Part shown: positions 8,586 through 62,727 of the stretch, piece by piece
Numbering within the stretch: position 1 is the stretch's first letter
Layout of the letters: every line of letters starts with the position of its first letter
NCBI GenBank assembly: GCA_016871515.1
Contig: VHDE01000013.1
Coordinates: 518 to 64,517, forward strand
Reading direction: 5' to 3'
Length of the DNA stretch: 64,000 bases
Origin: Verrucomicrobiota bacterium
GTDB lineage: Bacteria > Verrucomicrobiota > Verrucomicrobiia > Limisphaerales > SIBE01
Notes under the pieces: model-generated
Told to the model about the DNA's origin: nothing
The model's database searches: none
What the model saw: the letters and a program-made list of their open reading frames with translations, nothing else
Position numbers and translations under genes: made by a program

Positions 8586-9503
8586 CTACCCAGTTCCGCG
8601 AAAAGCTAAGGCAGCAGCGCCAACGAGTCCGGCATCATTGCCCAGTGCGGCCTTAACCACAGCGATTTCGTGGCGTGGAATCATGGCGGCTGCGTCGATG
8701 CTTTGCTGAATGGCGCTGGCAAAGAGCCGAAAATGGTCGTCGATGATTCCGCCGCCAAGAACGAAACGCTGCGGCAGAAACGTGTGCAGGAGAGCCCAAG
8801 CTGCGCAAGCCGTGGCGTCCAACGCTTGGTCGATGATGGCTTTGGCGCGGCTGTTATTTACCGAGGCCGCGACAAAAACGTCACGCGCGGTGTGAAAGCC
8901 ATGTTCCTGCCCGGCTTTCTCGATCGCCGCGCCAGACGCAATTGATTCCAGGCAGCCGCTGCGGCCGCAATAACACACGGCCCCGCCTCGCATGACCGGC
9001 ACGTGACCGATTTCCGGATGCTCACCTGCGGCGCCCCGGAACACGGCGTTGCCGCTCAGGGCCGCGCCACCAATGCCGGTGCCGAATGTCAGCATCACGA
9101 CTGGATCAAACCCGCGCGCCGCTCCGGCCAGTGACTCGCCTAGCAAGGCGGCGTCCGCGTCATTTTCGAGATAAACGGGCAACCCAACTCGGCTCTGGAG
9201 CGACGTGATGAGATTACCGCCTTCCCAACCTGGAAGTGTGTACGGATTGTTCACCAGGCCGGTTCGAGGATTCACGGGCCCGGCGCAGCCGATGCCTAGG
9301 CCGGCCAGCGCGGAAAACTCGAGCGCTTGCGCGCGCAACAGTTCGCCAAGAGTAAGCGTGATCGACGATACTGCGCTCTGAAACTCCTTCGGGGTTGCGA
9401 ACGACTGCCGGCACACGATTTGGCCACTGCGGTCGACAAGGCCAACGGCGATCTTCGTTCCGCCAATGTCGATTCCTGCTGATAGGCGGCGTTGCTCACT
9501 CAT
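8586..9503 (-). CDS. ROK family sugar kinase (glucokinase-like)
   Basis: 305 aa. Motifs: IDIGGTKIAVGLVD (ATP-binding), ENDADAALLGE, and the zinc motif GHVPV...CYCGRSGCLESIASG. Confidence 0.85.
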   Translation of the reverse strand: MSEQRRLSAGIDIGGTKIAVGLVDRSGQIVCRQSFATPKEFQSAVSSITLTLGELLRAQALEFSALAGLGIGCAGPVNPRTGLVNNPYTLPGWEGGNLITSLQSRVGLPVYLENDADAALLGESLAGAARGFDPVVMLTFGTGIGGAALSGNAVFRGAAGEHPEIGHVPVMRGGAVCYCGRSGCLESIASGAAIEKAGQEHGFHTARDVFVAASVNNSRAKAIIDQALDATACAAWALLHTFLPQRFVLGGGIIDDHFRLFASAIQQSIDAAAMIPRHEIAVVKAALGNDAGLVGAAALAFRGTG

Positions 9504-9610: not shown

Positions 9611-9746
9611 CGTAGCGCAGACTTTCAGTCTGCTGTATCGCAGAATTGTATTCTGCGGATCGTCCGCAAGTTCGAGCGTCCTGGAATGTGCGGACGGTAT
9701 GCCGATTGCAAATCGGCGATACAGCAGACTGAAAGTCTGCGCTACG
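9611..9746. repeat. 136-bp REPIN (inverted REP pair), 'gcagaCtttcaGtctgc' variant
   Basis: It has perfect 30-bp terminal inverted repeats, cgtagcgcagactttcagtctgctgtatcg and cgatacagcagactgaaagtctgcgctacg. Each arm carries a 7-bp-stem hairpin preceded by GTAG. Internal hairpins are cgcagaattgtattctgcg and ccgattgcaaatcgg. Confidence 0.85.
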
Positions 9747-9879
9747 ACGAAGGCAAGCGCGCTAACCATGTGGGCCGCGCTTCCGGCAAACCAGTGCTAG
9801 CAGATGCGAAACCCGAATGAGCACTCTCGGCGAGCCTCCTGGTTTGCTTACGAAATCGCTGCTAATCTTCTTTCATGAA

Positions 9880-12009
9880 TTATTTCGTGTGAGCCAAGGG
9901 TAATAGTTCGAACTTTCCTTCCCATCCCAAACTTGCGGCGGTCCTTTTCGGAAATTCCCAGCCTTGGTCGTCGGCGTGAGATTGATAAAGACGAATCTTG
10001 GAACGTTCTGCCGCCATTGCGACCGCTTGGGGCACGTCCAGGAAGCGCAGCACATTCAAATAATCCGGCCCATCCCGATGCGAGTTGGGCACGTTTTGAA
10101 ATTCAAGCTGACTGACATTTGGTTCAAAAAGGGAAGCATAAAGACCGTTCACCGCCATCGAACCTTTCGCGCGCAACGACACGGGCGCGTTTCTCAATCC
10201 CTCAAGGGAGCGGAGCGCCTGAATGCCGCGTCGAATGTCCCAAACACGCATTGCGTCCACGGTCTCGCCCAAAAGCATATACCTGCGACGCTGTTGGAGA
10301 CGTTTGGCTTCGCTCAAGTTTGAGGCCGTTGGCCCGATGCCCCGCGGCGCGATCCACGCGAAGGCGGTGCGCTGGCTGGCTAACTCTTCTTTGATCGAAG
10401 CGAAACGACTCCCTGAAACTGCGAACTTCGTTGAGCTAGGGCCGGCCAGCGTCTCAATCTCTTGTTTGGTAAGGCTCTGAAAACTCTCGCGAAGCAGAGC
10501 CGTCCAATCCGCCCAGTCCTCATCATCCATGATCTGCACAACGAGCCGTTCAGGTTTGGCACGTGAATTCTGAAGCAGGTAGATCGGCAGTTGGACACTC
10601 GGCTGACTCGAATATTCGCAGGCTCGCAAAAGGATGCCATCATCATCGACCGAAACGAGCGGTTGCATAGTGAGTGAAAGCGCTTGATCGGGCCAAGCGC
10701 GGAAAACCTTTTCCTGCAGAGCCGCCGTCCACGCTTGGCGTTGTTCGGTCCACTGCGATGCGGAAACGGGAACAGTTGGTTTTGGCGCGAGCGGAACGAA
10801 TGTTTCGTGAATCCTGCTGGTCCGTTCATCGGCGGGCAACGTCTCGAATACTTTGAGTTGATCGGGCGTGAAGAAACGCCGGGCCGCCACTTCAATGACG
10901 GGGTCCTCGCCTTTGAGATGCCGGTTAAACCAGCGAAACACGGGCAATTGCAAATCTTGCGTGTCCTTGTGCGGCCCTTCGGTAATCAGCAAACCCAGAG
11001 AGTTGGTCGCGCCATAAAGCTTGTAGATGTTCGCAACCTTGGCATGGATGCGAGCGACTCCGTCCAAGGGAAAGATCCAGTCCTTGTCCGAATTGCAGAT
11101 CAATAACGGCCGCGGAGCAGCCAGCGCCGCGACCATCGCGTAATCCCAGCGAAAGGTATTCACGATGAACATGCAATCGCAGTGGCCTTCGACGGCGCCA
11201 TCGACGACATGATTCTGAAGGTCCGTGATCCCTGCCACGGGCGCGGCGACCTTGATGCGATCATCGAGCGCCGTGATCCACCAACTGTACGCTCCGCCGC
11301 CCGAACGGCCTGTGACTCCGATGCGGTTCGGATCGACCTCCGGACGCGACTGGAGGTAATCCACCGCGCGGAGGCTGTTCCACGCTTCGACGCCAGCCGA
11401 GCTATAACCGCGCGCATTCCACCACCACATCCCTTCGCGGTAAGTGCCGTGATGGATGCCTTGGATCTCTCCGAGTTGCACGGTGTCAACCGTCAGGCAG
11501 ACGTACCCGTTCCTCGCGAACCACGAACCATGATGCTCGTAACCAGCCTTGTTCCCGAAGCTCACGCCATTGGTGATAAGGCGGGCGTGACCGCAAAGGT
11601 AAAGAATCGCCGGCGCGGGCTTCTGCAGTTTCTTTGGCAGAAATAGATTCGCCGTGACATAGAGGCCAGGCATCGATTGAAAATGCAGTTTCTCAACCGT
11701 GAACAACTCGGAGTCGATTTTGCCTGTGATGACTGGTTTCAAATCGGTCCGCGCGGGCAGGGGAGATAAGCTCAGCATTTCGAACAACTGTTGCCGATAT
11801 TCGGTTCGTTTCGCTTTCCAGTCGTCGAGCGTCTTAATATCGGCCAAAGAGCGATTCGCTAGCGCTGCCGTGCGGCTTTTGAAGTAATCGGCGAGCATCT
11901 GATCGCCGCGCGATGGCTGGGATGATATGTCAGCTGCAAGCAAAAAAGCCGGAGACAAAGTCGCGAGCAGAGCAAGAGAATAGAGGCGTGCGCAAGCGTA
12001 GATTTTCAT
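9880..12009 (-). CDS. alpha/beta hydrolase (acetyl xylan esterase/AXE1-like N-terminal half) with C-terminal extension, secreted
   Basis: 709 aa with a signal peptide. Nucleophile elbow GVTGRSGGGAYSWW. Surrounding blocks (LYLCGH..., VAAPVAGITDL, GHCDC) are typical of AXE1/dienelactone-hydrolase-like esterases. Confidence 0.7.
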   Translation of the reverse strand: MKIYACARLYSLALLATLSPAFLLAADISSQPSRGDQMLADYFKSRTAALANRSLADIKTLDDWKAKRTEYRQQLFEMLSLSPLPARTDLKPVITGKIDSELFTVEKLHFQSMPGLYVTANLFLPKKLQKPAPAILYLCGHARLITNGVSFGNKAGYEHHGSWFARNGYVCLTVDTVQLGEIQGIHHGTYREGMWWWNARGYSSAGVEAWNSLRAVDYLQSRPEVDPNRIGVTGRSGGGAYSWWITALDDRIKVAAPVAGITDLQNHVVDGAVEGHCDCMFIVNTFRWDYAMVAALAAPRPLLICNSDKDWIFPLDGVARIHAKVANIYKLYGATNSLGLLITEGPHKDTQDLQLPVFRWFNRHLKGEDPVIEVAARRFFTPDQLKVFETLPADERTSRIHETFVPLAPKPTVPVSASQWTEQRQAWTAALQEKVFRAWPDQALSLTMQPLVSVDDDGILLRACEYSSQPSVQLPIYLLQNSRAKPERLVVQIMDDEDWADWTALLRESFQSLTKQEIETLAGPSSTKFAVSGSRFASIKEELASQRTAFAWIAPRGIGPTASNLSEAKRLQQRRRYMLLGETVDAMRVWDIRRGIQALRSLEGLRNAPVSLRAKGSMAVNGLYASLFEPNVSQLEFQNVPNSHRDGPDYLNVLRFLDVPQAVAMAAERSKIRLYQSHADDQGWEFPKRTAASLGWEGKFELLPLAHTK

Positions 12010-37230: not shown

Positions 37231-38232
37231 TTAGGGCCTGTTCGTCTCGAGCAATGCCAGCGTGGCCCAGCCTGTCGTGGAAAGGCGATGCGCATAGCTT
37301 TCGGCGCCGGGCGGCCGCGTCGTTTCGGGCCAACTGCCATCACTCTGTTGCAACTTGAGCAGAAAATTTCGGCCGCGACGAATCTGTTCTGCATTCGCTG
37401 GATTCGGAGGAACGCGTGCCAGCGCCAAGAGAACTATTGCCGTATCGAATGTCTCGGGCGGCGCAGTCGGAAACGGCCCCCAACCGCCGTCCGCCGATTG
37501 TCCGCGAGCAATCAAACTGAGACATTGATCGCGCTGCTGGACGGCCTCCGTATCCGAGGAGTTTTCCAGCGCGAGAAGAATTGCGGCCGCATCGAGGATG
37601 CTATTGATGGGCGCGCGACGCAGCCATCGTTCGCCCTTTTCGATGCTGGTTCGCAAGTGATCCGACTTGGCCGCTCGCAGAATCCGAAGCGCCACGTGCG
37701 TGGCCAGCGAGGGTCCGTACGTGATTGGAGAACCGACAGAATCGCTGCTGCCCACATGCCAAGCGCCGTCTTCAGCTTGCGATTCGATCACCAAATCAGC
37801 GGCGCGAACCAGAACACGACGATCTTTGATATGGCCAGTTTCAATCGCCGTTGTCAGAGCCGCCGCGAATTGGATTCGCGCCAGATGTTTGTCGCTAAAG
37901 CGCGGGTCACCTTTGTTGTCATCCCAACGATTCGGTTTGGTCAGCCACTCGATCGTATCGGCAGTTGTGCTGGCAGCTATTCGATAGGCCCGATGGCCGC
38001 CAACAAAGAGCGCTCGCGCCGCGTCGCCATTGTTGTGACAGGAAAAGCATCTGTTCTCGTGATGCCAGAGTGGGACCTCCTGACTCAAGAACGTGAGCGC
38101 TTTCTCCTCGGGCGTGGAGCTGCCAACGGTTCGGCCACTGTTCAACGAGGGGCCTGAGCGGCAGCCGACTAAAGCGAAACAAAAAACGAGCAAAGTTCCG
38201 CGACTGACACTTAATGCCTTTCGATATCCCAA
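37231..38232 (-). CDS. lipoprotein with CXXCH motif and prenyltransferase/squalene-cyclase-like (alpha/alpha toroid) repeats
   Basis: ORF 37231..38427, but codons upstream of 38232 are a translated REPIN. The TTG at 38232 gives MGYRKALSVSRGTLLVFCFALVGC, with lipobox LVGC. It carries CFSCHNNG plus repeated DGAW / DGGWG / DGSW motifs. Confidence 0.55.
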   Translation of the reverse strand: MGYRKALSVSRGTLLVFCFALVGCRSGPSLNSGRTVGSSTPEEKALTFLSQEVPLWHHENRCFSCHNNGDAARALFVGGHRAYRIAASTTADTIEWLTKPNRWDDNKGDPRFSDKHLARIQFAAALTTAIETGHIKDRRVLVRAADLVIESQAEDGAWHVGSSDSVGSPITYGPSLATHVALRILRAAKSDHLRTSIEKGERWLRRAPINSILDAAAILLALENSSDTEAVQQRDQCLSLIARGQSADGGWGPFPTAPPETFDTAIVLLALARVPPNPANAEQIRRGRNFLLKLQQSDGSWPETTRPPGAESYAHRLSTTGWATLALLETNRP

Positions 38233-38235
38233 CGT

Positions 38236-38371
38236 CGCAGCGCAGACTTTCAGTCTGCTGCATGGCAGAATGGCGATCGGGATGCCGCCCGCACTTTCCA
38301 GGACGCTCGAACTGCCGGGCGATTCGCAGAATGCAATTCTGCCATGCAGCAGACTGAAAGTCTGCGCTGCG
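38236..38371. repeat. 136-bp REPIN, 'gcagaCtttcaGtctgc' variant
   Basis: It has perfect 30-bp terminal inverted repeats, cgcagcgcagactttcagtctgctgcatgg and ccatgcagcagactgaaagtctgcgctgcg. It lies between the peroxidase stop and the next gene start. Confidence 0.85.
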
Positions 38372-38423
38372 ATGAAGACAAACGCCCTAGACACGCAAGG
38401 ACGGGCACACTTCGGCAAAGCGT

Positions 38424-40313
38424 TCATTCATAGTCTTCGTTCAAGGAACGCAGAAACGCCGAAAGCGGCGCAAGCGTTTCTTTGACCAAATGGATTCGAG
38501 CCATTTCGGGATCGCCGTTGCGAACTCTTTGCTCGCGGGCGAGGTCAGAAGTAAAACGATAAAAGAATATGACGGCTTCAATGGTCGATGATTGGCCGGT
38601 GTGCAGGTAGGGCGCCGAATGGCCAAGATCACGCAGTCCGGGCGTTTTGAAGAGAGCGACGGTTTTAGGCAGCAGATCACCGCTGGCATTCGACCCAAAC
38701 TGCGCGGAGAGCATCGCGTTAAGTGGCGCTTGCGACGCCGGAAAATCCGGGTTCGCGTACACATTCCACAACCCGAGATCAGCGAAACCCGGGGACTCTT
38801 TGATCGGCTGGAAAGCAAATCGACCGTTTGCGTTCGGATGCATTGCGGTCGGCGGGAGGAAATCGTTCGGCGCAGCCAAACGTTCCGAGAGACTTGGGAT
38901 GGGAATCTGCGCCAACGTTCCTTCACCGTGAACCGAGTCGTACTCCCACTGCGTTGCGCCGGTGTTGTGAAAACTGAAATCGGTAAAATGCGGCGCGGCG
39001 TGGCAGGCGACGCAATTGCCAATCTTGCCCGGGACAGACGATGGGTCGCCGGGCTCAGCGAGGAATATTTTGAAGCCCTGCAATTCGGTTGGTCCGAAGC
39101 CGAATTTTTGGGCGTGGGTTGTGAATAAACCGTCGTCTGCGGTAACAAATACAGGGGATTTCAAGTTTGCGACAAGCCTCAACAAACGGCGACTGTAGGC
39201 CTTGTCATCCTCGCCGGCTTGCGGGCGACGCGGAAGGGAGTTCTTCTTGAGGAAGAGGTCGTAAGGGCTGCCCACGTATTCTCCGGCGTCGTCGGTGGCA
39301 AAAGCGAGCGACTTGAGATAAGCGTCGACGAGCTTGGCAACGGATTCGAGAATCCCGGCGTTGCTGGCTTTGAAGACATCAATCCTGAACTGTTCAGGCA
39401 ATCTGAAGGCGCCGGGAATTGCTGGATCGGTTCCGGCAAAGACTGTTCGGTAGGCTCCGCCCGTTTTTCGACCGAGGGGGTCCTGACCATTATCTTCGCG
39501 GATGACTCGGGCGATATGACTCACCGCCTGAGCGTGTTCGGCCGGCAACCAACCAAAGTTGCGACCGGTCAATGTTCCCTTAACGAGGGCTTCTCCGTTT
39601 GGGAATTCGCCATCGAAGTGCAGGAAGAACGCTCCTGGGCGGGCGACGGACGCGTTGGCGAGAGCGGGCGAATTGCGCGCCGTGAAACGACGGCCATCGC
39701 CGCGATCTGGAATCGGCGAACGGATGGCGAAATCCGCGTTAGCACGGGTCCCGAGACCGCTCGAACTGTGTTCATTCACGAGGTGACAAGCGCGGCAATT
39801 CATCGATTGTCCGGCGAATGCGCCTGGTTCCGCCGTATTGACCGTGAGCGTCTTTTCCATGACTGGGTCACCGCCGTTCGCCAACGGAGCGTTCACATCG
39901 CCGCCATAGTGCGCGAAAAAGAACTGGGCGAAACGAGTTTCAGCAAAGAGGCGCTCCCCGATCGCCACCTCAGGAGGATCAGGTTTAGCGTTAGCTTCCG
40001 CAGCCGAAAAAGCCCGAAAGAAGAGTTGAGGAGAGGATAATGGAACAGCGAATGTCGTCCGGCCGTTCGTGTCGGCAATTTGGACGGGCCATGTGGTCCA
40101 GCGCTGGAAGTCTTCGGTGGACGAAATGCCATAAGCGACCCCACCGGTTCCGGACACTATCAGCTGAGCGGTGCGGTTCGAAGAAGCCAGAATGGAAAGC
40201 CCGGGCGCACCCGAAGCTGTCGAATGGCCGCCGAGCAACAGAGCACCGAGACCAATAGACCAGCTAAGCCCAACGAGATGGGGCATTATTGCTGACACCA
40301 AGCCGAAGCGCAC
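38424..40313 (-). CDS. di-heme cytochrome c peroxidase (CCP/MauG family), secreted
   Basis: 629 aa. Two CXXCH motifs (CRACHLVNEH, CVACHAAPHFTDFSFHNTG). It also has the conserved FKTPGLRDLGHSAPYLHTG block. Confidence 0.8.
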   Translation of the reverse strand: MRFGLVSAIMPHLVGLSWSIGLGALLLGGHSTASGAPGLSILASSNRTAQLIVSGTGGVAYGISSTEDFQRWTTWPVQIADTNGRTTFAVPLSSPQLFFRAFSAAEANAKPDPPEVAIGERLFAETRFAQFFFAHYGGDVNAPLANGGDPVMEKTLTVNTAEPGAFAGQSMNCRACHLVNEHSSSGLGTRANADFAIRSPIPDRGDGRRFTARNSPALANASVARPGAFFLHFDGEFPNGEALVKGTLTGRNFGWLPAEHAQAVSHIARVIREDNGQDPLGRKTGGAYRTVFAGTDPAIPGAFRLPEQFRIDVFKASNAGILESVAKLVDAYLKSLAFATDDAGEYVGSPYDLFLKKNSLPRRPQAGEDDKAYSRRLLRLVANLKSPVFVTADDGLFTTHAQKFGFGPTELQGFKIFLAEPGDPSSVPGKIGNCVACHAAPHFTDFSFHNTGATQWEYDSVHGEGTLAQIPIPSLSERLAAPNDFLPPTAMHPNANGRFAFQPIKESPGFADLGLWNVYANPDFPASQAPLNAMLSAQFGSNASGDLLPKTVALFKTPGLRDLGHSAPYLHTGQSSTIEAVIFFYRFTSDLAREQRVRNGDPEMARIHLVKETLAPLSAFLRSLNEDYE

Positions 40314-50869: not shown

Positions 50870-53800
50870 CTAACTTGCCTTGCGGAAGGCGCGGCTCGCG
50901 GCGCCGAATGCAGCCAGTACAACAAACACGCCGATGAGGATCGACAGGCGCAGCCGCCAGGAAGCGGTCCTTGCCGCGACCGCCTCCAGTTCAATCCTCA
51001 AGTCCGCCCATGGATCCACGAGCACGGCACGCTTGAAGGTGAGGAGCCGGCCTTGTTCGGGAATAGACGCGCGCATCGCAACGGGACTGCTGACGGCGGC
51101 ATCCTGCTGCTGAATGAGTCGTTCGGCCAAGCGCATGAAAGCGGCGTTTTCATCCGCGGTGTTGCGATCGATAATCTCCTTCGCGTCCTGTTGGGTGTAG
51201 GTAACTCCTTCGCGACTCCGCAGGTCACGCACCCTTGCGCCCAGTGCCGTGGTGTCACCAGCTACTGCCGCTTGGCGGACGTTCAGCCCGACCAAAGCCT
51301 GTTGCAGCTTCAGATTGTGCAATTGAACGCGAGCATCTTCATTGAACGCGTTGTCATGCTGGCTCAAGCCGTAGGCGGCCTGGAATGCGCGTCGCGCCTG
51401 CTGCGGGTCGCCGCGTTCGAGCAGCGTATTGCCCATAGCCAGGAGTTCCTCGGCTTCTTTCGTTTTGCCGCGTTGCAGAGCAGCCTCATTTTGAAGATAA
51501 GTCTGCAAATCAACCGCGGCGCTCCGAGGCGCCATTTGGTCCTGTTGCAACTGCAGGGTCCCCGCCCAATCTTTGACGCGCCATTTCTCACTGAGATAGA
51601 CCCGCCATGTGATGTCCTCCAGCGGCAAATCAAATTTCGGGGCGAGCAGGTCAAGATCGAGCGAGCGCCTGCGAGATGAACCAATCTTGCTGCTGTAAAA
51701 TATTTCCACTGGGATCGCTTTCCCGGAGCGCGCTTGCGGTTCGAGCGGAACCAAAATGCGGTCCCCTTCGCGCCACGGCCAAACGCCGCTTTGATTCACG
51801 AACGCAAACCAAAAACGCGCGTCTGCTGGTAACGTGAGATAAAGCAAACGTTTGTCGCCTGGCAACATCTCGAGACGCGCTTGCGTGAGCATAACACCAT
51901 CATCGGAAATGACGGAGGTCAGCGTGACATTGTTGACGCGAGCGGGCAAAAGCTTCGCGGCTTCGTGGCGGTCCAGTTTCAATGGCAATTGAAACGACGG
52001 TTCAACGAGACGAAACGCGAAATTGGCCGAGACTGCTGACAAGTCCTGCTGCAGCGCGCGGGGAATGCTTTGCCACTCGGTCGTTTGCAGCGAAGCCGGC
52101 AGCGCATCGATGCGGACTTGTTGACGGCCTCGGGCTTGCACTGTGACGAAGCCGCGTTGCAGGTTCACGTCCGCCGTTTGGACGCCACGCAGAACGGTCT
52201 CGGTCGCGGTGTCTGCGACGGCAGTCTGATAAGTGACTTGCAACAAGTATCGACCAATCACACGCCGATGCAGCTTGATTTCCCACGCTTGCAAATTATT
52301 CGTCACCCCGCCTGCAATTGGGAGGAAACCGGAAACTTGGTCGCCTTGAAAACGGACGCTTCCGGCATTGGTCGGCAAGAAAACGCGGAACGCTTTCAAG
52401 CCCGTGTTCTCGATCTGGTATTGCAAGTTTGCCCCAACGTTTACCAGGGCTTCACTGACAGTTGCATGTTGCAGGCTCGTCACCTGAATCCACGGATCGA
52501 CTTGTTCGATGTCCAGCGCCAGATTCCACGGAACCTGCAGAATGCGGAAGGCGAGCACGCCCTTCTGCTGGATGCCTGTCTTTTGCGGGTCCAGCTGTGT
52601 CACGCCATTGCGCGTGCCCGGTTGCAGCCGCATGCCTTGGTCCGGCACAATCAAGAGAGTTCCGCGCTGCTTGCTGGCTTCGCGCAAAACGAGCTGTGGA
52701 ACGGCCCAATTGTTCGTGGTCTTAACACCGGCTCCCGACAAACTGATGGCGAACTGTTGCGGCCCGGCCGTCTTGCCGCGCAAGTGCAGCGTGATAATCC
52801 GTCCAGCATCAGCGCGCAACTCGGTCCAATGGCTCAACGCTTGGCCACTGATCGACTCCACATCGAGCGCGCCGGGCAACACAAAACTCAGGCGGAAAAT
52901 GCCCGCGCGCGTAATATCGACCGACAGGTTCGACGCAAGAACTGTCCGGTCTTCGCCCAATGATACGGTGTCCTGTGTTTCGACGCGCACGTCCGGCTCG
53001 ACTGGAGAGGCTCGGACCGAAACCGTAGCTCCAGTCTCCGTGTATCGAAACGCGCGGCGGACGGTCAGCTCAGGAATCTGCGCCTGGAGCATTTGCGGTG
53101 CGCTAACGGGATAATCTTCGAGATTGATCGGGGAGAGATTGCCTGCGTTCACGGAATCGAGTTGAACTTCGCGGCCCGTCGCAATACCAAGCAAACCGAT
53201 CTGCCCCGCCGCCTGCTCGATAGAAAGAAGTCCAATCGATTGTTCAAAGGGCAATGGGCCGGTAGGAACTTGTGAGCGGATCAGCAGCGTGAAAGGACGC
53301 GACTGCGCCGGGTTCAAATTCACGCGGAGCCTGCGCGTGTCGGGATCGAAACGCCAGAGCGACGCGATCGATTTTGGTGGCAGTGGTTGGTTGGTGGCGG
53401 CATCGGTCCCGGGTGTAGGATCGATTGCGCTGACATCCGTGATCGTCGCGCCGGTTGGGACGTTAAAGACAAGCTCCGTAAGTTCTCCCTGGGCCGGGCG
53501 AATGACGGCGTGATGCGCACCTTCAATTACACCCGCAGTCGGGACGTAAAGTTGAGAGATTTCAGCATAGAAGACCGCTCTTTCCCGCTTCACATCACGG
53601 CTGCGCGGGCGCCAGTTGATCCAGGCGTCGTTCACGGGCGCGAGGACGAGGTTCGCCATGGTGTTGCTGTTGGAAGTCGTGCGTTCGATGGAAGCGGCCT
53701 GCGCTGAGAATACGTCCACATCAAGATTGGCGAGGGTCAACCGAAGCGGATTGATCAACCCATGTTGCGTGGGGAGAACGAAGCCGCTTTCGCTAAGCTT

Positions 53801-56800
53801 GGCCGTCACGTGGATTTGGTATCGCAATTCGACATCGAACGCGCCGGTTTCCAAAGCTAGCAACTGATGCGCACGCCTGCCGTTGGCCGGAGCCTGAATC
53901 AGTCTGAGTGCGTTCGTCGGATAAACAACGCTCGTCAATACGGCCGGCTCGAACAGGAGAGGAAGCGTCTGGTTTTTCTCGGCCGTCCAATGGATCTTGG
54001 CCGTGCCGAGCGCGAACCTTTCTTCGACGCGAATTTCCTGCGCGACCGATTCGGCCAGCGCCGGCGCTCTGGGAAATGGAGTAGGGGTGTAAAGGGCGGC
54101 GGGAACTGGATTGGCTTGCGGATTGGCCGTCTGCGCCTGAGCAACCAGCAGCGTGCCATCGTAACGCAGAGTTCCACTCTGCTGTATCGCAGACTTGTAG
54201 TCTGCAGCGAGTCCGAGAGCCGAGACATTCCCGCGAGATCGAGCGTTCTGCCGACTGAAAGTCGGCGATACAGCAGAGTGAAACTCTGCGTTACGAGGCG
54301 CGCTCGAATGCGCAATGACCGGCGGCGCGGATTCAGACCACAGTGACAGCAGGGTTCCAATGAGCAGCGATGCCACAGCCGGCGCCGGGCCGCTGTCCGG
54401 CGGAGTCAGCGCCGCGGACTTTGGTTTTCTTGGCAGTTGCCAAAGCCGGCGCAGAGCCGGAATCAAAGTGTGGAGCAGTAAGAAGAGGAGAATAATTACG
54501 ATGAAACTCGGCGCTCCGCCGGGTGCCCGCAGTCCCGCCCAGGCCACAAGCGTCCATCCGAACAGCCATCCGACCGCCGTGAACCACATGCGATTCGTGA
54601 TCCATCCATAAACCCAGACCACCAGCGCAAGCAATGCCGGCCATGCGTAGCCAAGGAAACTGAACACCGTGGCTTCAGCTTTGATGTTTGCTACTTCGAC
54701 GTTAAGCCCAGTGCCGGCTTGTTGTACTGGCGCTAGAAACGTTACCTCGCGCGAAACAGCGACGTTCTGCTGCGCGGCCAAGTCACCAAGGCTGATCAGT
54801 GCTGCGATCGCCATAGCCACGGCTATCAGACCCAGGACCGTCCCGAACAGATGGCGCGCGCTGTATCTGTAAACGCCTTCACGCACCGTCCATCGCCAAA
54901 CCACAAGCGCAATCCCAACTAATAACAGCGCAGCAATCAGCGAAACCAGAGCTTGCGCAGCGTCCAGACCGCTGAATGCTTTGTTCAACTGGGCGAAGCC
55001 AGAAATATCGGCGACACCATCCACAGGCGTCAGTGAACCCCGGCGATAGATCAAACGTTGTCCTGCGTCTGGCGCAAGTTTCCATTCTGCGAGCATCACG
55101 GGTGCGGCGACGATTGGTGTGGCGATGGCCACCCGTTTGGGGGTTGTTGACCGCGAAGCCAACTTAACGTCCACGGCCAGGACCGCGTTGGGATCCGCTC
55201 GCTGCGGCAAGGGAATCATGTTCGCTTGTCCATCCAGGACCGGCACGACCGGAGCGCCGTTCACTGTTGCGGACCACAATTGCGTTCCAGCCGGGAGCGT
55301 CACTCGGAAATGTGAATTGCCGCGATTCTTGACGAAATAATGCGCGTCCGTCAGGACTTGTCCTTCTTTCGAAATTCGTGTCAACAGCGACGCCCGGTCA
55401 ACGACTTGGCTGAGAGAATCGCCCTGGACCAGCGGGTTGAGCGCGAGCCGCAAATTGAATGGCCGCGATGTGTAACGATAAGCCGCGAGAACTGGCGCAT
55501 CGAAGAAGAGTCGATATTCCGGAGGCACTTCACCAGTTTCGAGCGGCAACAATCCTGGCGACACATCCACCGGATTGACCTGAAATTGATACGCGCTAAT
55601 CACCAGCGTGTGGCCTTGTTCCGATTGCGCGTCGAGCGGGCGCGCTCCGGTAAATGCGAGCGTTTCGCCTTGCGCTCGAAACGGCCGCTCATAGGTTGCG
55701 AGCAGCGTATAAGCGCCGGACACGGGCGAGTGCAATTGCACGACGTAGCCATTGGTCGCTCTTTGCCAATTGCGAATGTCTTTGCCGATAAACTCGACGT
55801 TGAAGTATTCGTTCGAGAGCTCGATCCTCAGCGTTGATATCGGCGCGCCTGAAACCAGATAGTGCATCACGCTGCTGCCGTAAGCGATGCCTTCGCCGAT
55901 GGAAAAAAGATGGAAAGCATCCGCTTGCACCGTCTGCGGCAAACGCTCCACGCGCAACGTTGCCTGCCAAGCCGGTTCGCTGAGTCGAAATGCCAACTGA
56001 ATGCCAGCGACCTTGCGCGGAAAGAACGCCGTTGCGATCTCGGTCAATGCTTGGGTCCTGTCGGGTGTGATGCGGAAACCCGCATCCGCCGAGACGCCCA
56101 AATGGCCACGCACCGATTTCGCTCGGGAAATCTCGATCCGTGGCAACACCCAATTAGTTTGGCCCAGCGCTTGATGGCGTTCGACGCGGAGCTGAACGAT
56201 TTGCCGGCCGGAAACAGGTTGGCCATACACCAGACGCAGTTCGGCGTCTGGATCGCCCTCCGGCTCGCGCAGAAAATAATCGCTCAGGCCGGACGCGTTC
56301 AGGCGCGCGATGGCATATCCTTTTGGGACGCGCATCAGCAACTCCCGCATGGGCGCTTCGCGGATGTCCAATTCAAACTCCGCGTCGATGGCGAGTTCGT
56401 TCTCGGCGTGATGATATGCGAGCACTTCGGAGACGCTGAGTTCAGGCAAGATTTGGTCCGCTTGAATTCGCAGGGAGAATTCGCCGCCAGAAAAGCGATA
56501 AGCAAACCGCTGGCTGCCGCCAGTCGCAAAGAGCGTTCTCGTGACGTCCGTTTCCGGAAATTGTTCGGGAGAAATCTGAGAAAGTCCGGCGGCTTGGACA
56601 ACTTCGAGGCGCACCGCACCTTCGTTGAGTATCCGAACATAACCAGCTAAACGGGTCGCGCCTTCAGGCCGTAGTTGCATGGCATCGACGGCTTGGGGAA
56701 GCGCCCCGATGGATGTCTGCATTTGAACTTGGAGCGCGAACTGATCTTTCTGGGGTTGATTAAACTGAATGACGAGGCGCCGGCCAGCAGAGTTCGCAAT

Positions 56801-58174
56801 AGGTTCAACATTCCATGCGAGCACATGAGCGCCTTGGACACGTGTGACTTCGCCGGCGCCGCGCAACAACAAGGCGACGCGGTTCAACTCGCCTTGCATG
56901 ACTTTGAAATCAAGCAACGCCATTTGCCGCATGAGCCCGGGACTGACGCCGATCTGAGAAAGCATTTCGGCCGCGTAGAACAGTTTGCCCTCGGCTTCGC
57001 GCCGAGCTTCTTTCCAGGAAAGTTTCACCGCGCCGTCCGCCGGAAGGTAACCCACGAATTGGCTGCCAGCGCGTTCGGGCCGAGCCGCCCCGGGAAACTC
57101 GAACTGAGTATCGGCGATCAATCCTTCGAGAGCGATCGGTTGCAATGCACTCGGTGCAACGCGGAAATCGACTGAGTTCCAACCATTGGTTTGGCTAACT
57201 GCGGCCTTGAACTTGAGCTGAATGGGAAATTCGCCCGACCGATCGAACGCAATGATGAAGCGGCCTTGCTCGAACCGGAGACGCCAATGTGGATGCGTTT
57301 TCAGATCGGTCAAAGCAATGTTCCCTTGCAACAGCGCTATCGAACCGCCGCGCGGATTTTTGATGCGCGCGTTGGCGGTCAAGACAAAGCTTACCGTTTG
57401 GTCGCTGAGTTGCCCGCTCAGCTTAAAGTCGCGCAACACAACTCGGCGCGCTTCGGGGTCCGCGATCGTAATGCGGAGCGGGATATGGTAGGGCGAGCCG
57501 TGGAAACGGAAGGCGAGCGGATCTGGACTATCCGGCTTGGCCTCGATGCGCAATGATGATGGCAAGAATTTGGGATCGATGGGCGCCAGGCCGGTGGGGC
57601 TGTCGGGCTGGACATCGAGGTCCGGCGTCACTTCAATCGTCACGTAACCGTTGAATAACGCTGGACTGGATGGAGTGAGGGTTAAGGCGGTTAATGGATT
57701 CGTCCATGTGCGGAGATCGCGTTCGGCCGAAATCGTGACCGAAAGTTGCGTGATTGGTTTGTCGCTTTTGCGAGGGCGAAGGATCAGCGTGCGCACGCCG
57801 TTGGTTTCTTGGCGGATGCTCCAATCTTGCAGCAACTCGCCGGTGACCTGGCGTATTTCACCTTCCCCGCTGATCGTGAGTGGGAGTTCTTTGGGCTCGC
57901 CTTGAAGAATGTCGAAGGTGGCTGCGATGGAATGGGCGATTTTTTCGCGCGAGACTTTGATCGAGTGCTGGAGAGCGGTGGCGTAAATAAGCTTGTCTTT
58001 CTCGCCGGACAAACCGCTGAGCACCGCTTCGATGATCAGCCGCGCCCTCCCGTCTTCGACGCCGCCGTTGATGGAAAGGTTTCTTAATTCTGCGGTCGCG
58101 CCCGAAACGTTGTTCGCGGTCAGGATCGATAACGCAAGGAGGATGGATATGGGGATGCGTACGGGAATGTTCAT
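50870..58174 (-). CDS. giant hypothetical membrane protein (2434 aa): two paralogous beta-rich halves, each ending in TM segment(s), joined across a REPIN
   Basis: Uninterrupted ORF with the N-terminal signal peptide MNIPVRIPISILLALSILTANNVSG. The first half ends in ~5-6 TM helices. The second half ends in a TPR-like segment plus one TM helix (LSILIGVFVVLAAFGAA). The halves share blocks such as VTLPAGTQLWSATVNGAPVVPVLDGQANMIPLP and LTLPADARFWFAFVNQSGVWPWREGDRILVPLEP. It may really be two genes. Confidence 0.6.
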   Translation of the reverse strand: MNIPVRIPISILLALSILTANNVSGATAELRNLSINGGVEDGRARLIIEAVLSGLSGEKDKLIYATALQHSIKVSREKIAHSIAATFDILQGEPKELPLTISGEGEIRQVTGELLQDWSIRQETNGVRTLILRPRKSDKPITQLSVTISAERDLRTWTNPLTALTLTPSSPALFNGYVTIEVTPDLDVQPDSPTGLAPIDPKFLPSSLRIEAKPDSPDPLAFRFHGSPYHIPLRITIADPEARRVVLRDFKLSGQLSDQTVSFVLTANARIKNPRGGSIALLQGNIALTDLKTHPHWRLRFEQGRFIIAFDRSGEFPIQLKFKAAVSQTNGWNSVDFRVAPSALQPIALEGLIADTQFEFPGAARPERAGSQFVGYLPADGAVKLSWKEARREAEGKLFYAAEMLSQIGVSPGLMRQMALLDFKVMQGELNRVALLLRGAGEVTRVQGAHVLAWNVEPIANSAGRRLVIQFNQPQKDQFALQVQMQTSIGALPQAVDAMQLRPEGATRLAGYVRILNEGAVRLEVVQAAGLSQISPEQFPETDVTRTLFATGGSQRFAYRFSGGEFSLRIQADQILPELSVSEVLAYHHAENELAIDAEFELDIREAPMRELLMRVPKGYAIARLNASGLSDYFLREPEGDPDAELRLVYGQPVSGRQIVQLRVERHQALGQTNWVLPRIEISRAKSVRGHLGVSADAGFRITPDRTQALTEIATAFFPRKVAGIQLAFRLSEPAWQATLRVERLPQTVQADAFHLFSIGEGIAYGSSVMHYLVSGAPISTLRIELSNEYFNVEFIGKDIRNWQRATNGYVVQLHSPVSGAYTLLATYERPFRAQGETLAFTGARPLDAQSEQGHTLVISAYQFQVNPVDVSPGLLPLETGEVPPEYRLFFDAPVLAAYRYTSRPFNLRLALNPLVQGDSLSQVVDRASLLTRISKEGQVLTDAHYFVKNRGNSHFRVTLPAGTQLWSATVNGAPVVPVLDGQANMIPLPQRADPNAVLAVDVKLASRSTTPKRVAIATPIVAAPVMLAEWKLAPDAGQRLIYRRGSLTPVDGVADISGFAQLNKAFSGLDAAQALVSLIAALLLVGIALVVWRWTVREGVYRYSARHLFGTVLGLIAVAMAIAALISLGDLAAQQNVAVSREVTFLAPVQQAGTGLNVEVANIKAEATVFSFLGYAWPALLALVVWVYGWITNRMWFTAVGWLFGWTLVAWAGLRAPGGAPSFIVIILLFLLLHTLIPALRRLWQLPRKPKSAALTPPDSGPAPAVASLLIGTLLSLWSESAPPVIAHSSAPRNAEFHSAVSPTFSRQNARSRGNVSALGLAADYKSAIQQSGTLRYDGTLLVAQAQTANPQANPVPAALYTPTPFPRAPALAESVAQEIRVEERFALGTAKIHWTAEKNQTLPLLFEPAVLTSVVYPTNALRLIQAPANGRRAHQLLALETGAFDVELRYQIHVTAKLSESGFVLPTQHGLINPLRLTLANLDVDVFSAQAASIERTTSNSNTMANLVLAPVNDAWINWRPRSRDVKRERAVFYAEISQLYVPTAGVIEGAHHAVIRPAQGELTELVFNVPTGATITDVSAIDPTPGTDAATNQPLPPKSIASLWRFDPDTRRLRVNLNPAQSRPFTLLIRSQVPTGPLPFEQSIGLLSIEQAAGQIGLLGIATGREVQLDSVNAGNLSPINLEDYPVSAPQMLQAQIPELTVRRAFRYTETGATVSVRASPVEPDVRVETQDTVSLGEDRTVLASNLSVDITRAGIFRLSFVLPGALDVESISGQALSHWTELRADAGRIITLHLRGKTAGPQQFAISLSGAGVKTTNNWAVPQLVLREASKQRGTLLIVPDQGMRLQPGTRNGVTQLDPQKTGIQQKGVLAFRILQVPWNLALDIEQVDPWIQVTSLQHATVSEALVNVGANLQYQIENTGLKAFRVFLPTNAGSVRFQGDQVSGFLPIAGGVTNNLQAWEIKLHRRVIGRYLLQVTYQTAVADTATETVLRGVQTADVNLQRGFVTVQARGRQQVRIDALPASLQTTEWQSIPRALQQDLSAVSANFAFRLVEPSFQLPLKLDRHEAAKLLPARVNNVTLTSVISDDGVMLTQARLEMLPGDKRLLYLTLPADARFWFAFVNQSGVWPWREGDRILVPLEPQARSGKAIPVEIFYSSKIGSSRRRSLDLDLLAPKFDLPLEDITWRVYLSEKWRVKDWAGTLQLQQDQMAPRSAAVDLQTYLQNEAALQRGKTKEAEELLAMGNTLLERGDPQQARRAFQAAYGLSQHDNAFNEDARVQLHNLKLQQALVGLNVRQAAVAGDTTALGARVRDLRSREGVTYTQQDAKEIIDRNTADENAAFMRLAERLIQQQDAAVSSPVAMRASIPEQGRLLTFKRAVLVDPWADLRIELEAVAARTASWRLRLSILIGVFVVLAAFGAASRAFRKAS
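54160..54295. repeat. 136-bp REPIN, 'gcagaGtttcaCtctgc' variant, inside the giant ORF
   Basis: Terminal arms are cgtaacgcagagttccactctgctgtatcg and cgatacagcagagtgaaactctgcgttacg, with internal hairpins gcagacttgtagtctgc and ccgactgaaagtcgg. It is translated in the ORF frame as RNAEFHSAVSPTFSRQNARSRGNVSALGLAADYKSAIQQSGTLRY. Confidence 0.85.
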
Positions 58175-58190
58175 GAGCAGTGTTCTGGAA

Positions 58191-58219
58191 ATCGCGATAA
58201 CCGAAAAAACAAGCGCTCC
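58191..58219 (-). promoter_or_regulatory. candidate ECF-type promoter (GGAGCG-N17-CGCGAT) upstream of the giant ORF
   Basis: The minus-strand sequence reads ggagcg cttgttttttcggttat cgcgat, ending 16 nt before the ATG at 58174. It resembles the GGAGCA-N16-CGTCTA box upstream of the ECF sigma gene at 63315. This is pattern match only. Confidence 0.2.
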
Positions 58220-58223
58220 GGAC

Positions 58224-58454
58224 CGTAACGCAGAGTTTCACTCTGCTGTATCGCCGACTTGCAGTCGGCAGAGCACTCGACCTTGCGGAAACTTCTCGAT
58301 TTGGCGGACGCGCTGCAGATTGGAAATCTGCGATACGGCAGAGTAAAACTCCGCGCTACGATCTGGCACTCGAATTTGTGGGAGCTTCTCGATTGTCGGA
58401 CACGCCGCAGAGTGAAACTCTGCGATACAGCAGAGTGAAACTCTGCGTTACGCC
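58224..58454. repeat. 231-bp REP cluster (one 137-bp REPIN plus a partial REPIN with tandem hairpins), left flank of RAYT
   Basis: By eye it is identical base-for-base to 59243-59473. It starts cgtaacgcagagtttcactctgctgtatcg and ends gcagagtgaaactctgcgatacagcagagtgaaactctgcgttacgcc. Confidence 0.9.
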
Positions 58455-58536
58455 GCTGGCCGCGACATTGAGGTTGCAAATAACCGAGTCGACGCGCTAG
58501 CCTCCGCACGTGTTTCCCAAGGAGGAAAATCCGCGG

Positions 58537-59247
58537 ATGGATCGAGTGCGCTTTGAGCTTCGTTCGGACGGGATCAAACCGGAGGAAACAAACCCGTTGC
58601 GTTCCGGTGTTCATACACGAGGCTATCTGCCACACGTCAAGCGCGAAGGCGCGCGTTACTTTGTGACATTTCGCCTCGCCGATTCGTTGCCCAAAGAGGT
58701 CTTGCTCAAGTATCAGGCGGAGCGCGGGGAGCGGTTGCAGCTTTTCTATGCGCAGCACGACGCCGCGAAAGGCCCGGGGACAGCCCTCCCGAAGCAAGAG
58801 ATGCTGGAAGAAATCGAGCGCGAGTACAATCGCAAGGTCGAGCGTTATCTTGATCAAGGCTGCGGGGAATGCTGGCTGAGACGACCCGAAATTGCGGACT
58901 TGGTCACTGAAGCCGTGCGATTCTTTGATGGCAAGCGATATTGGCTGGATGCTTGGGTTATCATGCCAAATCACGTGCATGGTGTCTTGTGGCCGGCGCC
59001 GAACCACTCGTTGAGCCATATCCTGCAAAGCTGGAAAAGCTACACAGCTCGGCAGGCGAACAAAGTTCTCAATCGGACGGGACATCCATTTTGGCAACGA
59101 GAGGCATTCGATCATTGGATTCGCGATGATGAGGAACATGCGCAGTGCTGTCGTTATGTGACAAACAATCCGGTAAAGGCTGGCCTGTGTGCAACGCCGC
59201 GGGACTGGAAATGGAGCAGCGCGTGGGGTGATGGCCAGCCATCGTAA
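58537..59247 (+). CDS. REP-associated tyrosine transposase (RAYT; IS200-like Y1/HUH family)
   Basis: ORF 58510..59247 with ATG at 58537, preceded by aaggagg (58519-58525). HUH motif in WVIMPNHVHGVLWP. Downstream blocks: SWKSYTARQAN, FWQREAFDHWIRD, YVTNNPVKAGL, W.WSS. N-terminal block GYLPHV. The TAA stop lies inside the right REP cluster. Confidence 0.8.
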   Translation: MDRVRFELRSDGIKPEETNPLRSGVHTRGYLPHVKREGARYFVTFRLADSLPKEVLLKYQAERGERLQLFYAQHDAAKGPGTALPKQEMLEEIEREYNRKVERYLDQGCGECWLRRPEIADLVTEAVRFFDGKRYWLDAWVIMPNHVHGVLWPAPNHSLSHILQSWKSYTARQANKVLNRTGHPFWQREAFDHWIRDDEEHAQCCRYVTNNPVKAGLCATPRDWKWSSAWGDGQPS

Positions 59248-59473
59248 CGCAGAGTTTCACTCTGCTGTATCGCCGACTTGCAGTCGGCAGAGCACTCGAC
59301 CTTGCGGAAACTTCTCGATTTGGCGGACGCGCTGCAGATTGGAAATCTGCGATACGGCAGAGTAAAACTCCGCGCTACGATCTGGCACTCGAATTTGTGG
59401 GAGCTTCTCGATTGTCGGACACGCCGCAGAGTGAAACTCTGCGATACAGCAGAGTGAAACTCTGCGTTACGCC
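59243..59473. repeat. 231-bp REP cluster, right flank of RAYT
   Basis: Identical to 58224-58454, at an offset of 1019 bp. Confidence 0.9.
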
Positions 59474-59525
59474 TTTGGGCAGTTTCTATGCGTGGGATGA
59501 ATTGGTTCGGCCTGTTCATCTCGAT

Positions 59526-62581: not shown

Positions 62582-62717
62582 CGTAACGCAGAGTTTCACT
62601 CTGCCGTATCGCAGAGTTTCACTCCGCGGCGCGCCCGCAATTCCAAAGCCCACCGACAGATCGAACGCTCTGCCGACTGCAAATCGGCGATGCGGCAGAG
62701 TGAAACTCCGCGTTACG
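62582..62717. repeat. 136-bp REPIN, 'gcagaGtttcaCtctgc' variant, between the ECF sigma and anti-sigma genes
   Basis: Terminal arms are cgtaacgcagagtttcactctgccgtatcg and cgatgcggcagagtgaaactccgcgttacg, with 2 arm mismatches. It fills almost all of the 151-bp sigma/anti-sigma spacer. Confidence 0.85.
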
Positions 62718-62727
62718 GGGTTTTCCG

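Follow-up and report, generated by a model that had tools for sequence, protein, structure and literature searches.

A REPIN lying in frame within the hypervariable linker of a probably ancient, single giant gene of Verrucomicrobiota

REP sequences bearing a GTAG tag, and dimers of them, have been described lying wholly inside open reading frames (ORFs) and being translated with them (Di Nocera, De Gregorio and Rocco 2013, BMC Genomics 14:522; PMC3733652). The highest count of such intragenic REPs was found in the verrucomicrobium Opitutus terrae, and the inserts were suggested to be neutral and to sit in flexible linkers or loops (PMC3733652). Here, we analyzed a related element, a pair of inverted REPs forming a REPIN, which lies in frame within a giant ORF on a 64,000-nucleotide stretch of a Verrucomicrobiota bacterium (contig VHDE01000013.1; the whole stretch is hereafter called the window). 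An earlier sequence-only reading of this DNA had treated REPs as extragenic by definition, a view outdated by the published intragenic and translated REPs and REP dimers (PMC3733652). The window element resembles these in its GTAG-like tag (GTAA here), in its inverted dimer, in its association with a REP-associated tyrosine transposase (RAYT), as in REPtrons, and in its location inside an ORF. It differs from them in length (45-46 codons, against typical inserts of 20-30 aa), in its host, which is a giant membrane protein where the earlier survey stressed repair and replication genes, and in the occupancy of the same site in several species, which that survey noted for Xanthomonas recB only (PMC3733652).

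Two further systems provide a frame of comparison. In the REPIN-RAYT systems (Bertels and Rainey 2011, PLoS Genet 7:e1002132; PMC3116915), 14 of 1,067 16-mers overlap genes. As in those systems, the window element consists of two inverted REPs and a spacer that make one long hairpin, is multi-copy, and is accompanied by a single RAYT flanked by elements, which appears vertically inherited as judged from syntenic orthologs; unlike those essentially extragenic Pseudomonas elements, the copy studied here is fully contained in a conserved ORF, in a host from Verrucomicrobiota. The Rickettsia palindromic elements (RPE), of ~100-150 bp, are found in frame in protein-coding genes and are translated at tolerated positions (PMC10969869). 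The window element shares with them the palindromic insertion in frame in a protein-coding gene, and differs in its sequence family and in its host, that of RPE being an obligate intracellular alphaproteobacterium. RPEs, reported by Ogata et al. (2000), are the classic case of in-frame palindromic inserts, and to our knowledge no dedicated transposase is known for RPEs. Judged on sequence, the window element behaves in an RPE-like manner, as the whole of it lies in a conserved ORF, in frame and stop-free, with homologs aligning on both sides. Translated palindromic repeats of this type are thus already documented, and what is added here is a series across several species at a single junction, with a syntenic RAYT next to it.

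The gene and the parts of it that matter to the argument are the following.

50870..58174, minus strand: giant ORF of 2434 codons (7305 nt), open throughout
First half of the giant protein: signal peptide, large domain and transmembrane (TM) cluster, followed by the linker
Second half of the giant protein: large domain paralogous to that of the first half, a weak TPR-like stretch and, at the C-terminus, a TM anchor
54305..54385, minus strand: internal signal-peptide-like segment, residues ~1264-1290 (APAVASLLIGTLLSLW...IAHS), delineated by hydropathy and sequence
54160..54295, minus strand: REPIN core of 136 nt, read in frame as residues 1294-1338 (RNAEFHSAVS...QQSGTLRY)
54131..54151, minus strand: LLVAQAQ, an instance of the host linker motif LLxAQA

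The best explanation of this arrangement, which we hold with considerable confidence as a whole, is that the giant protein is the product of one ancient gene in which a TM cluster, a signal-like helix and a hypervariable linker join the two halves. Two positional claims of the sequence-only reading were upheld by the analysis: the REPIN lies in frame within an uninterrupted ORF, all 2434 codons of which are open, with residues 1294-1338 reading as the peptide given above, and it sits at the junction of paralogous halves (22% identity over 640 aa, E 4e-29, BLASTP), behind the final hydrophobic segments of the first one. The same reading had proposed that a REPIN inserted at a stop/start junction fused two adjacent paralogous genes, for which the paralogy of the halves and the position of the element exactly at their junction do speak. 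It had also named the state of orthologs lacking the repeat as the test of fusion, and those loci hold one gene, the outcome that it had stated beforehand to be incompatible with its proposal. A whole-protein search retrieved 700 relatives, the best 120 of which were considered for ortholog architecture; nearly all of these were single proteins of ~2100-2650 residues, with 59-73% identity, from Verrucomicrobiota. A species scan with one genome per species yielded 79 loci, and anchors before and after the linker could both be placed in 70 of them. The two halves shared one frame, with no stop between them, in all 70, most of which lack any palindrome, and ~90% of orthologs have no intact hairpin in the linker. 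Element-free relatives with two separate genes, as expected for gene fusion by a mobile element, were thus found at none of the 70 loci. Repeat-free orthologs encode a single fused protein in 70/70 species loci and in ~120 clusters (about 117 protein clusters).

The depth of the fused layout points in the same direction. When the second half was used for an exhaustive HMMER search, this layout persisted down to 24-30% identity, and it is therefore far older than a REPIN that differs from its source family at 1 of 46 nt. Stand-alone proteins of ~1090-1110 aa that are distantly homologous to the second half do exist (P0197, P0207 and P0239; 31-38% identity), each with an ordinary N-terminal signal peptide, which makes a two-gene ancestor or derivative conceivable in deep time; the giant gene may descend from two genes, and such a descent would be separate from the history of the REPIN. 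Fusion by the REPIN is consequently left with almost no probability, and the comparison of sequences indicates that the element did not create the gene architecture. This corrects an attractive but wrong story, in which the repeat built the giant gene. The closest repeat-free relatives are ~70% identical with a linker that cannot be aligned, so the pre-insertion sequence is not recoverable, and a search of the flanks for a target-site duplication (CCT/ATG in the window, GCT/ACG in the orthologous species locus L001) revealed no direct repeat.

The possibility that the in-ORF REPIN is an artefact of assembly or sequencing, for instance a chimera caused by the repeat or a frameshift that went unnoticed, deserves consideration, as the source is a metagenome-assembled genome (MAG) and repeats are classic points of mis-assembly. 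The giant protein matches MBM3832676.1, from a Verrucomicrobia MAG, at 100% identity. The same 7305-nt gene with its REPIN was found in three other independent assemblies from different samples at 99.95% nucleotide identity, and the 3-4 positions at which these differ from the window all lie at least 300 nt away from the REPIN. Because the identical REPIN-bearing gene recurs in three further assemblies, and orthologs in other species carry in-frame REPs at the same site, mis-assembly or sequencing error is very unlikely.

The region that received the element has the properties of a tolerant linker. After the TM cluster, a basic stretch (LPRKPK) is followed by a 14-residue hydrophobic segment that ends in A-x-A in most orthologs (...VASAQD, ...AFA / RS, ...ALA / RN), and the REPIN begins right after the position of this AXA end. 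We regard the segment as a predicted internal signal-peptide equivalent, with topology and cleavage judged from its residues, because the stand-alone second-half homologs start with a signal peptide at the equivalent place; both halves are predicted, on the same topology, to be periplasmic. No in-frame ATG, GTG or TTG occurs in codons 1268-1399 of the giant ORF, so that the second half cannot be started independently. From the signal-like segment to the conserved ...LAESVxQxIRVE block, the linker ranges from 29 to 225 aa, with a median of 45 (117 clusters). This hypervariability, and the other kinds of insert that linkers of other species hold, support the proposal that the REPIN became a linker by exonisation. 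The LLxAQA motif, in turn, is common to long-linker orthologs, whether their linkers hold REPs, other palindromes or neither. LLVAQAQ had been put forward as a signal-peptidase-like site, and we rejected it as a relic of such a site, since it is a shared ortholog motif, lacks a preceding h-region and has no start codon. Pfam searches with the whole giant protein and with five fragments returned only sub-threshold TPR matches near the C-terminus.

Other sequences were also observed in the linkers of individual species. A different palindrome family, with 10-bp stems (CCCTCTCCCC/GGGGAGAGGG), is translated in the linkers of L003 (~9858-10065), L016 (~5650-5780) and L045 (~4440-4780), reading ...LTPALSPLRGEG..., and its unit is tandemly duplicated in L045. 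A third family, with CAACCCC/GGGGTTG stems, is translated in the linker of L042 (~9120-9260). At L060 (8913-9695), a single REP hairpin (ARSADYKSAS) is followed by an insert of ~230 residues (…LVGWWRGEGNALDHLG…VFGG…FYVDG…), which, judged by eye, may resemble a LamG/concanavalin-like domain.

The internal structure of the element is that of a canonical REPIN, in which two inverted REPs separated by a short spacer can form one long hairpin. Its inverted-repeat arms (54159-54207 and 54248-54296) measure 49 nt each, are 90% complementary and leave 40 nt between them, and 7-bp stems form two hairpins in each arm.

54166..54205: REP arm nearer the 3' end of the gene, with two 7-bp-stem hairpins
54166-54182: hairpin of this arm, GCAGAGT-TCC-ACTCTGC
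54189-54205: hairpin of this arm, GCAGACT-TGT-AGTCTGC
54250..54289: REP arm nearer the 5' end of the gene, with two 7-bp-stem hairpins
54250-54266: hairpin of this arm, GCCGACT-GAA-AGTCGGC
54273-54289: hairpin of this arm, GCAGAGT-GAA-ACTCTGC

Each arm thus combines one hairpin of the type GCAGAGT-nnn-ACTCTGC with one of the type GCCGACT/GCAGACT-nnn-AGTCGGC/AGTCTGC. On the coding strand, the hairpins of the 3'-side arm read ADYKSAI and QQSGTLRY and those of the 5'-side arm AEFHSAV and SPTFSRQ, and the tryptic peptides of the REPIN-encoded segment would include NAEFHSAVSPTFSR and GNVSALGLAADYK. The terminal tag in the window (CGTAAC-GCAGAGT...) is a GTAA variant, related loci having CGTAGC-GCAGAGT/GCAGATT; a GTAG-like tag, for which degeneracy is allowed, beside a 7-bp stem (5-13 bp being required) places the element in the GTAG-tagged REP superfamily. 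In the intact copies examined, which include three of L001, the conserved core is always 136 nt. The statement of the sequence-only reading that the 136-bp element is not a multiple of 3 therefore holds for this core, and fails for the palindrome as it stands here, which comprises the core and one base on each side, that is 138 nt (54159-54296) or 46 codons. The element is stop-free in three of its six frames, so an in-frame survivor needs nothing beyond selection against losing the second half. The predicted RNA fold of the REPIN reaches -100.2 kcal/mol (z = -11.7), shuffled sequences giving -52.5 ± 4.1. With a permissive Rfam threshold, the stretch 53800-54700 produced nothing beyond a chance match to Fungi_SRP (13.5 bits against a gathering score of 65), and the element is covered by no curated RNA family. 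A search with the 49-aa REPIN peptide against a set of 5.8 billion proteins returned no candidate, a query too short to inform, as it missed even the parent protein.

The element belongs to a family with further copies in its immediate surroundings, which include a RAYT gene and two REP clusters.

58537..59247, plus strand: RAYT, divergent from the giant gene and just upstream of it
58224..58454: REP cluster between the RAYT start and the giant-gene start, consisting of a 136-nt REPIN and a further REP pair
59243..59473: REP cluster of 231 bp on the other side of the RAYT, identical to 58224-58454 (offset +1019)
62582..62725: intergenic REPIN of the same family, upstream of a VWA/YfbK-like gene, with arm copies detected by nhmmer at 62582-62717
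9611-9746 and 38240-38368: sister-family copies detected by nhmmer

Copy number was assessed within the 64-kb window by a census with an nhmmer profile of the arm, and there the family is multi-copy and otherwise mainly extragenic. A 30-nt arm probe matched 7 times in the window against 0 expected, and the hairpin motif 13 times against 0.01 expected; this excess identifies the element as a repeat and no chance palindrome. The RAYT, at ~4 kb from the in-ORF REPIN, scores 30 bits against Pfam Y1_Tnp (PF01797; cutoff 23) and aligns with the E. coli TnpA-REP crystal structure (PDB 4ER8, E 1.6e-5), its HVH matching the HMH of the HUH motif, so that both the Y1_Tnp fold with its HUH motif and the similarity to TnpA-REP are present. 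Its catalytic Tyr presumably lies in RYVTNNPVK, which is aligned to DYIYINPVK. The local RAYT is the putative agent of mobilisation of the in-ORF REPIN, as suggested by the near-identity of this REPIN to a RAYT-flanking REP. The identical 231-bp clusters bracket the RAYT in direct orientation, and homologous recombination between them could delete or duplicate it.

Comparison of the in-ORF copy with its relatives bears on its age. Its arm nearer the 5' end of the gene departs from the RAYT-flanking REP of its own genome (58224) at 1 of 46 nt and from the in-ORF arms of L001 at 7-8 of 46 nt; the latter arms in turn differ from L001's own copies at 2 of 46 nt. Variants particular to each lineage (CGTAAC/TTTCA in the window, CGTAGC/TTGCA in L001) are present in both arms, and the palindrome is kept by paired changes while the encoded residues change. 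The single mismatch to the local RAYT-flanking repeat implies recent re-insertion or homogenisation of the present copy.

The occupancy of the site, on the other hand, extends across species. In L001 (= P0002, 72% identical), a 136-nt REPIN stands in the linker in the same phase, and the same Asp-Gly comes after it. In L012, L006, P0012 and P0023, the LLxAQA motif has a left REP on one side and an inverted right REP on the other; one hairpin, with its terminal tag, is kept in L024 and L060; and decayed REP remains are found in L029 and L002. The left junction (GCx / CGT-A/G-x-C-GCA-GA, the spaced slash marking the boundary) has the same codon phase in at least six other species (L001, L012, L024, L029, L060 and L063), in which the REP 5' end lies 96-108 nt after the anchor, as compared with ~129 nt in the window. 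Since the REP-bearing lineages are spread over different clades of a neighbor-joining (NJ) tree and share this junction and phase, the REP occupancy of the junction is considered old. RAYT orthologs with 67-71% identity occupy the same place, divergently upstream, in L001, L006, L024, L070, L077, L078 and L079, and in these seven loci, as in the window, the RAYT is flanked by REPs, which in the seven loci are arranged in REPINs of 135 or 136 nt. The idea that an adjacent RAYT predicts a linker REP does not strictly hold, as L070, L077 and L078 have the RAYT and no intact REP; conversely, L012 and L060 have linker REPs, yet no RAYT within 6 kb.

Two of these loci merit a separate description. 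At L001 (8777-9745), the syntenic RAYT was called as two ORFs (224 and 95 aa), across which tblastn aligns 234 residues continuously at 71%, and this RAYT may, on that alignment, have been disrupted recently beside intact REPINs. L002, the NJ sister of L001, lacks both a RAYT in the 6 kb upstream and REP hairpins anywhere in the locus, and all that its linker retains is a decayed remnant of the left arm (ATGAGCGCAGATATTCAAGCTGCC, giving MSADIQAA); as one case, this agrees with decay of REPs once the RAYT is lost.

Taken with the ortholog evidence, these observations make it very probable that an ancient single gene carries, at the site of an old linker REP, what is now a REPIN of recent type translated as a passenger, its neutrality and its re-insertion or conversion being the more conjectural parts. 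In such a course of events, a GTAG-type REP of the family of the upstream RAYT would have entered the linker long ago, directly after the AXA of the signal-like helix, and only in-frame, stop-free versions would have survived, because losing the second half would be selected against. The site would then have been remodelled lineage by lineage, by expansion to a REPIN doublet, collapse to one hairpin or decay. In the present genome, the intact 136-nt REPIN with the genome's own REP variants would have been recently re-inserted, or homogenised against local REPINs, and its translation would add 45 passenger residues to a tolerant linker, no function of the REPIN having to be assumed.

Several points weigh against this explanation. 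Translation through the -100 kcal/mol hairpin and a full-length product are presumed from conservation. The NJ tree is rough, being built on one 900-aa block with no support values, and an ancient shared insertion and repeated insertion at one preferred target are not formally separable. L024, L070, L077 and L078 keep the RAYT while their linkers hold a remnant or nothing, a pattern in which the presence of a RAYT is no predictor of an intact in-ORF REPIN. The 44-nt loops of the in-ORF copies in the window and in L001 are more similar when one is reversed (identity 0.60) than in the forward comparison (0.47), which is modest evidence that the two copies lie in opposite orientation, the RAYT-flanking copies being consistent with it. 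The site may have been re-colonised independently, or the resident copy may have been converted or flipped against the genome's REPIN population; we prefer neither.

The long persistence of REPs at this junction also raises the possibility that the REP or REPIN is kept for a function, as an mRNA structure that tunes translation or decay between the halves, as a pause helping the preceding helix to insert into the membrane, or as a useful N-terminal extension of a processed second half. Occupancy over a long divergence with fixed junction and phase, the maintenance of the palindrome by compensatory changes while residues change, and the very stable RNA structure would all agree with such a role. 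We nevertheless consider it rather unlikely, given that ~90% of orthologs do without an intact hairpin, that the element decays or collapses freely, and that no T-run or terminator follows the hairpin; the unrelated palindromes and the ~230-residue insert in the same linker fit tolerance better.

A more specific extension of the passenger explanation, which we put forward tentatively and rate as possible more than probable, is that the single codon-phased site behind the AXA is a long-lived REP landing pad in a family- or order-level clade of Verrucomicrobiota, repeatedly overwritten by the master REPIN of the RAYT. The master copy would either home to the REP already in place or replace it through gene conversion, and could do so in both orientations. 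The evolution of the insert would be that of a REPIN and not that of a protein, marked by compensatory changes in the arms and by lineage variants, and a second-half protein, possibly cleaved, would receive its N-terminal extension from the insert. If true, the landing pad would be direct evidence, drawn from comparison, that REPINs mobilised by a RAYT reuse their target sites. The series of intact, collapsed and decayed elements at a fixed junction could in any case be used to study REPIN target choice, homogenisation and the rate of decay after RAYT loss.

The remaining REP copies of the window bear on annotation. The sister-family copy at 9611-9746 is an intergenic 136-nt REPIN of a second sub-family, with GCAGACT-TTC-AGTCTGC as its first hairpin and a true GTAG tag; the window shows just one RAYT, and no second one is visible for this sub-family. 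Two listed ORFs, 58171-59139 (minus strand, 322 aa) and 59154-59519 (minus strand, 121 aa), are antisense to the RAYT, cross the REP clusters and are almost certainly spurious. REPINs of this family, being open in half of their frames, can lie in real proteins and can also extend ORFs falsely, as at 37231..38427. This minus-strand ORF overlaps its upstream gene by ATGA and runs for ~60 codons through the sister-family REPIN 38240-38368, and a TTG near 38233, with a lipoprotein-type signal (…LLVFCFALVGC), looks like its true start; if so, an open-frame REPIN has given 37231-38427 a false extension.

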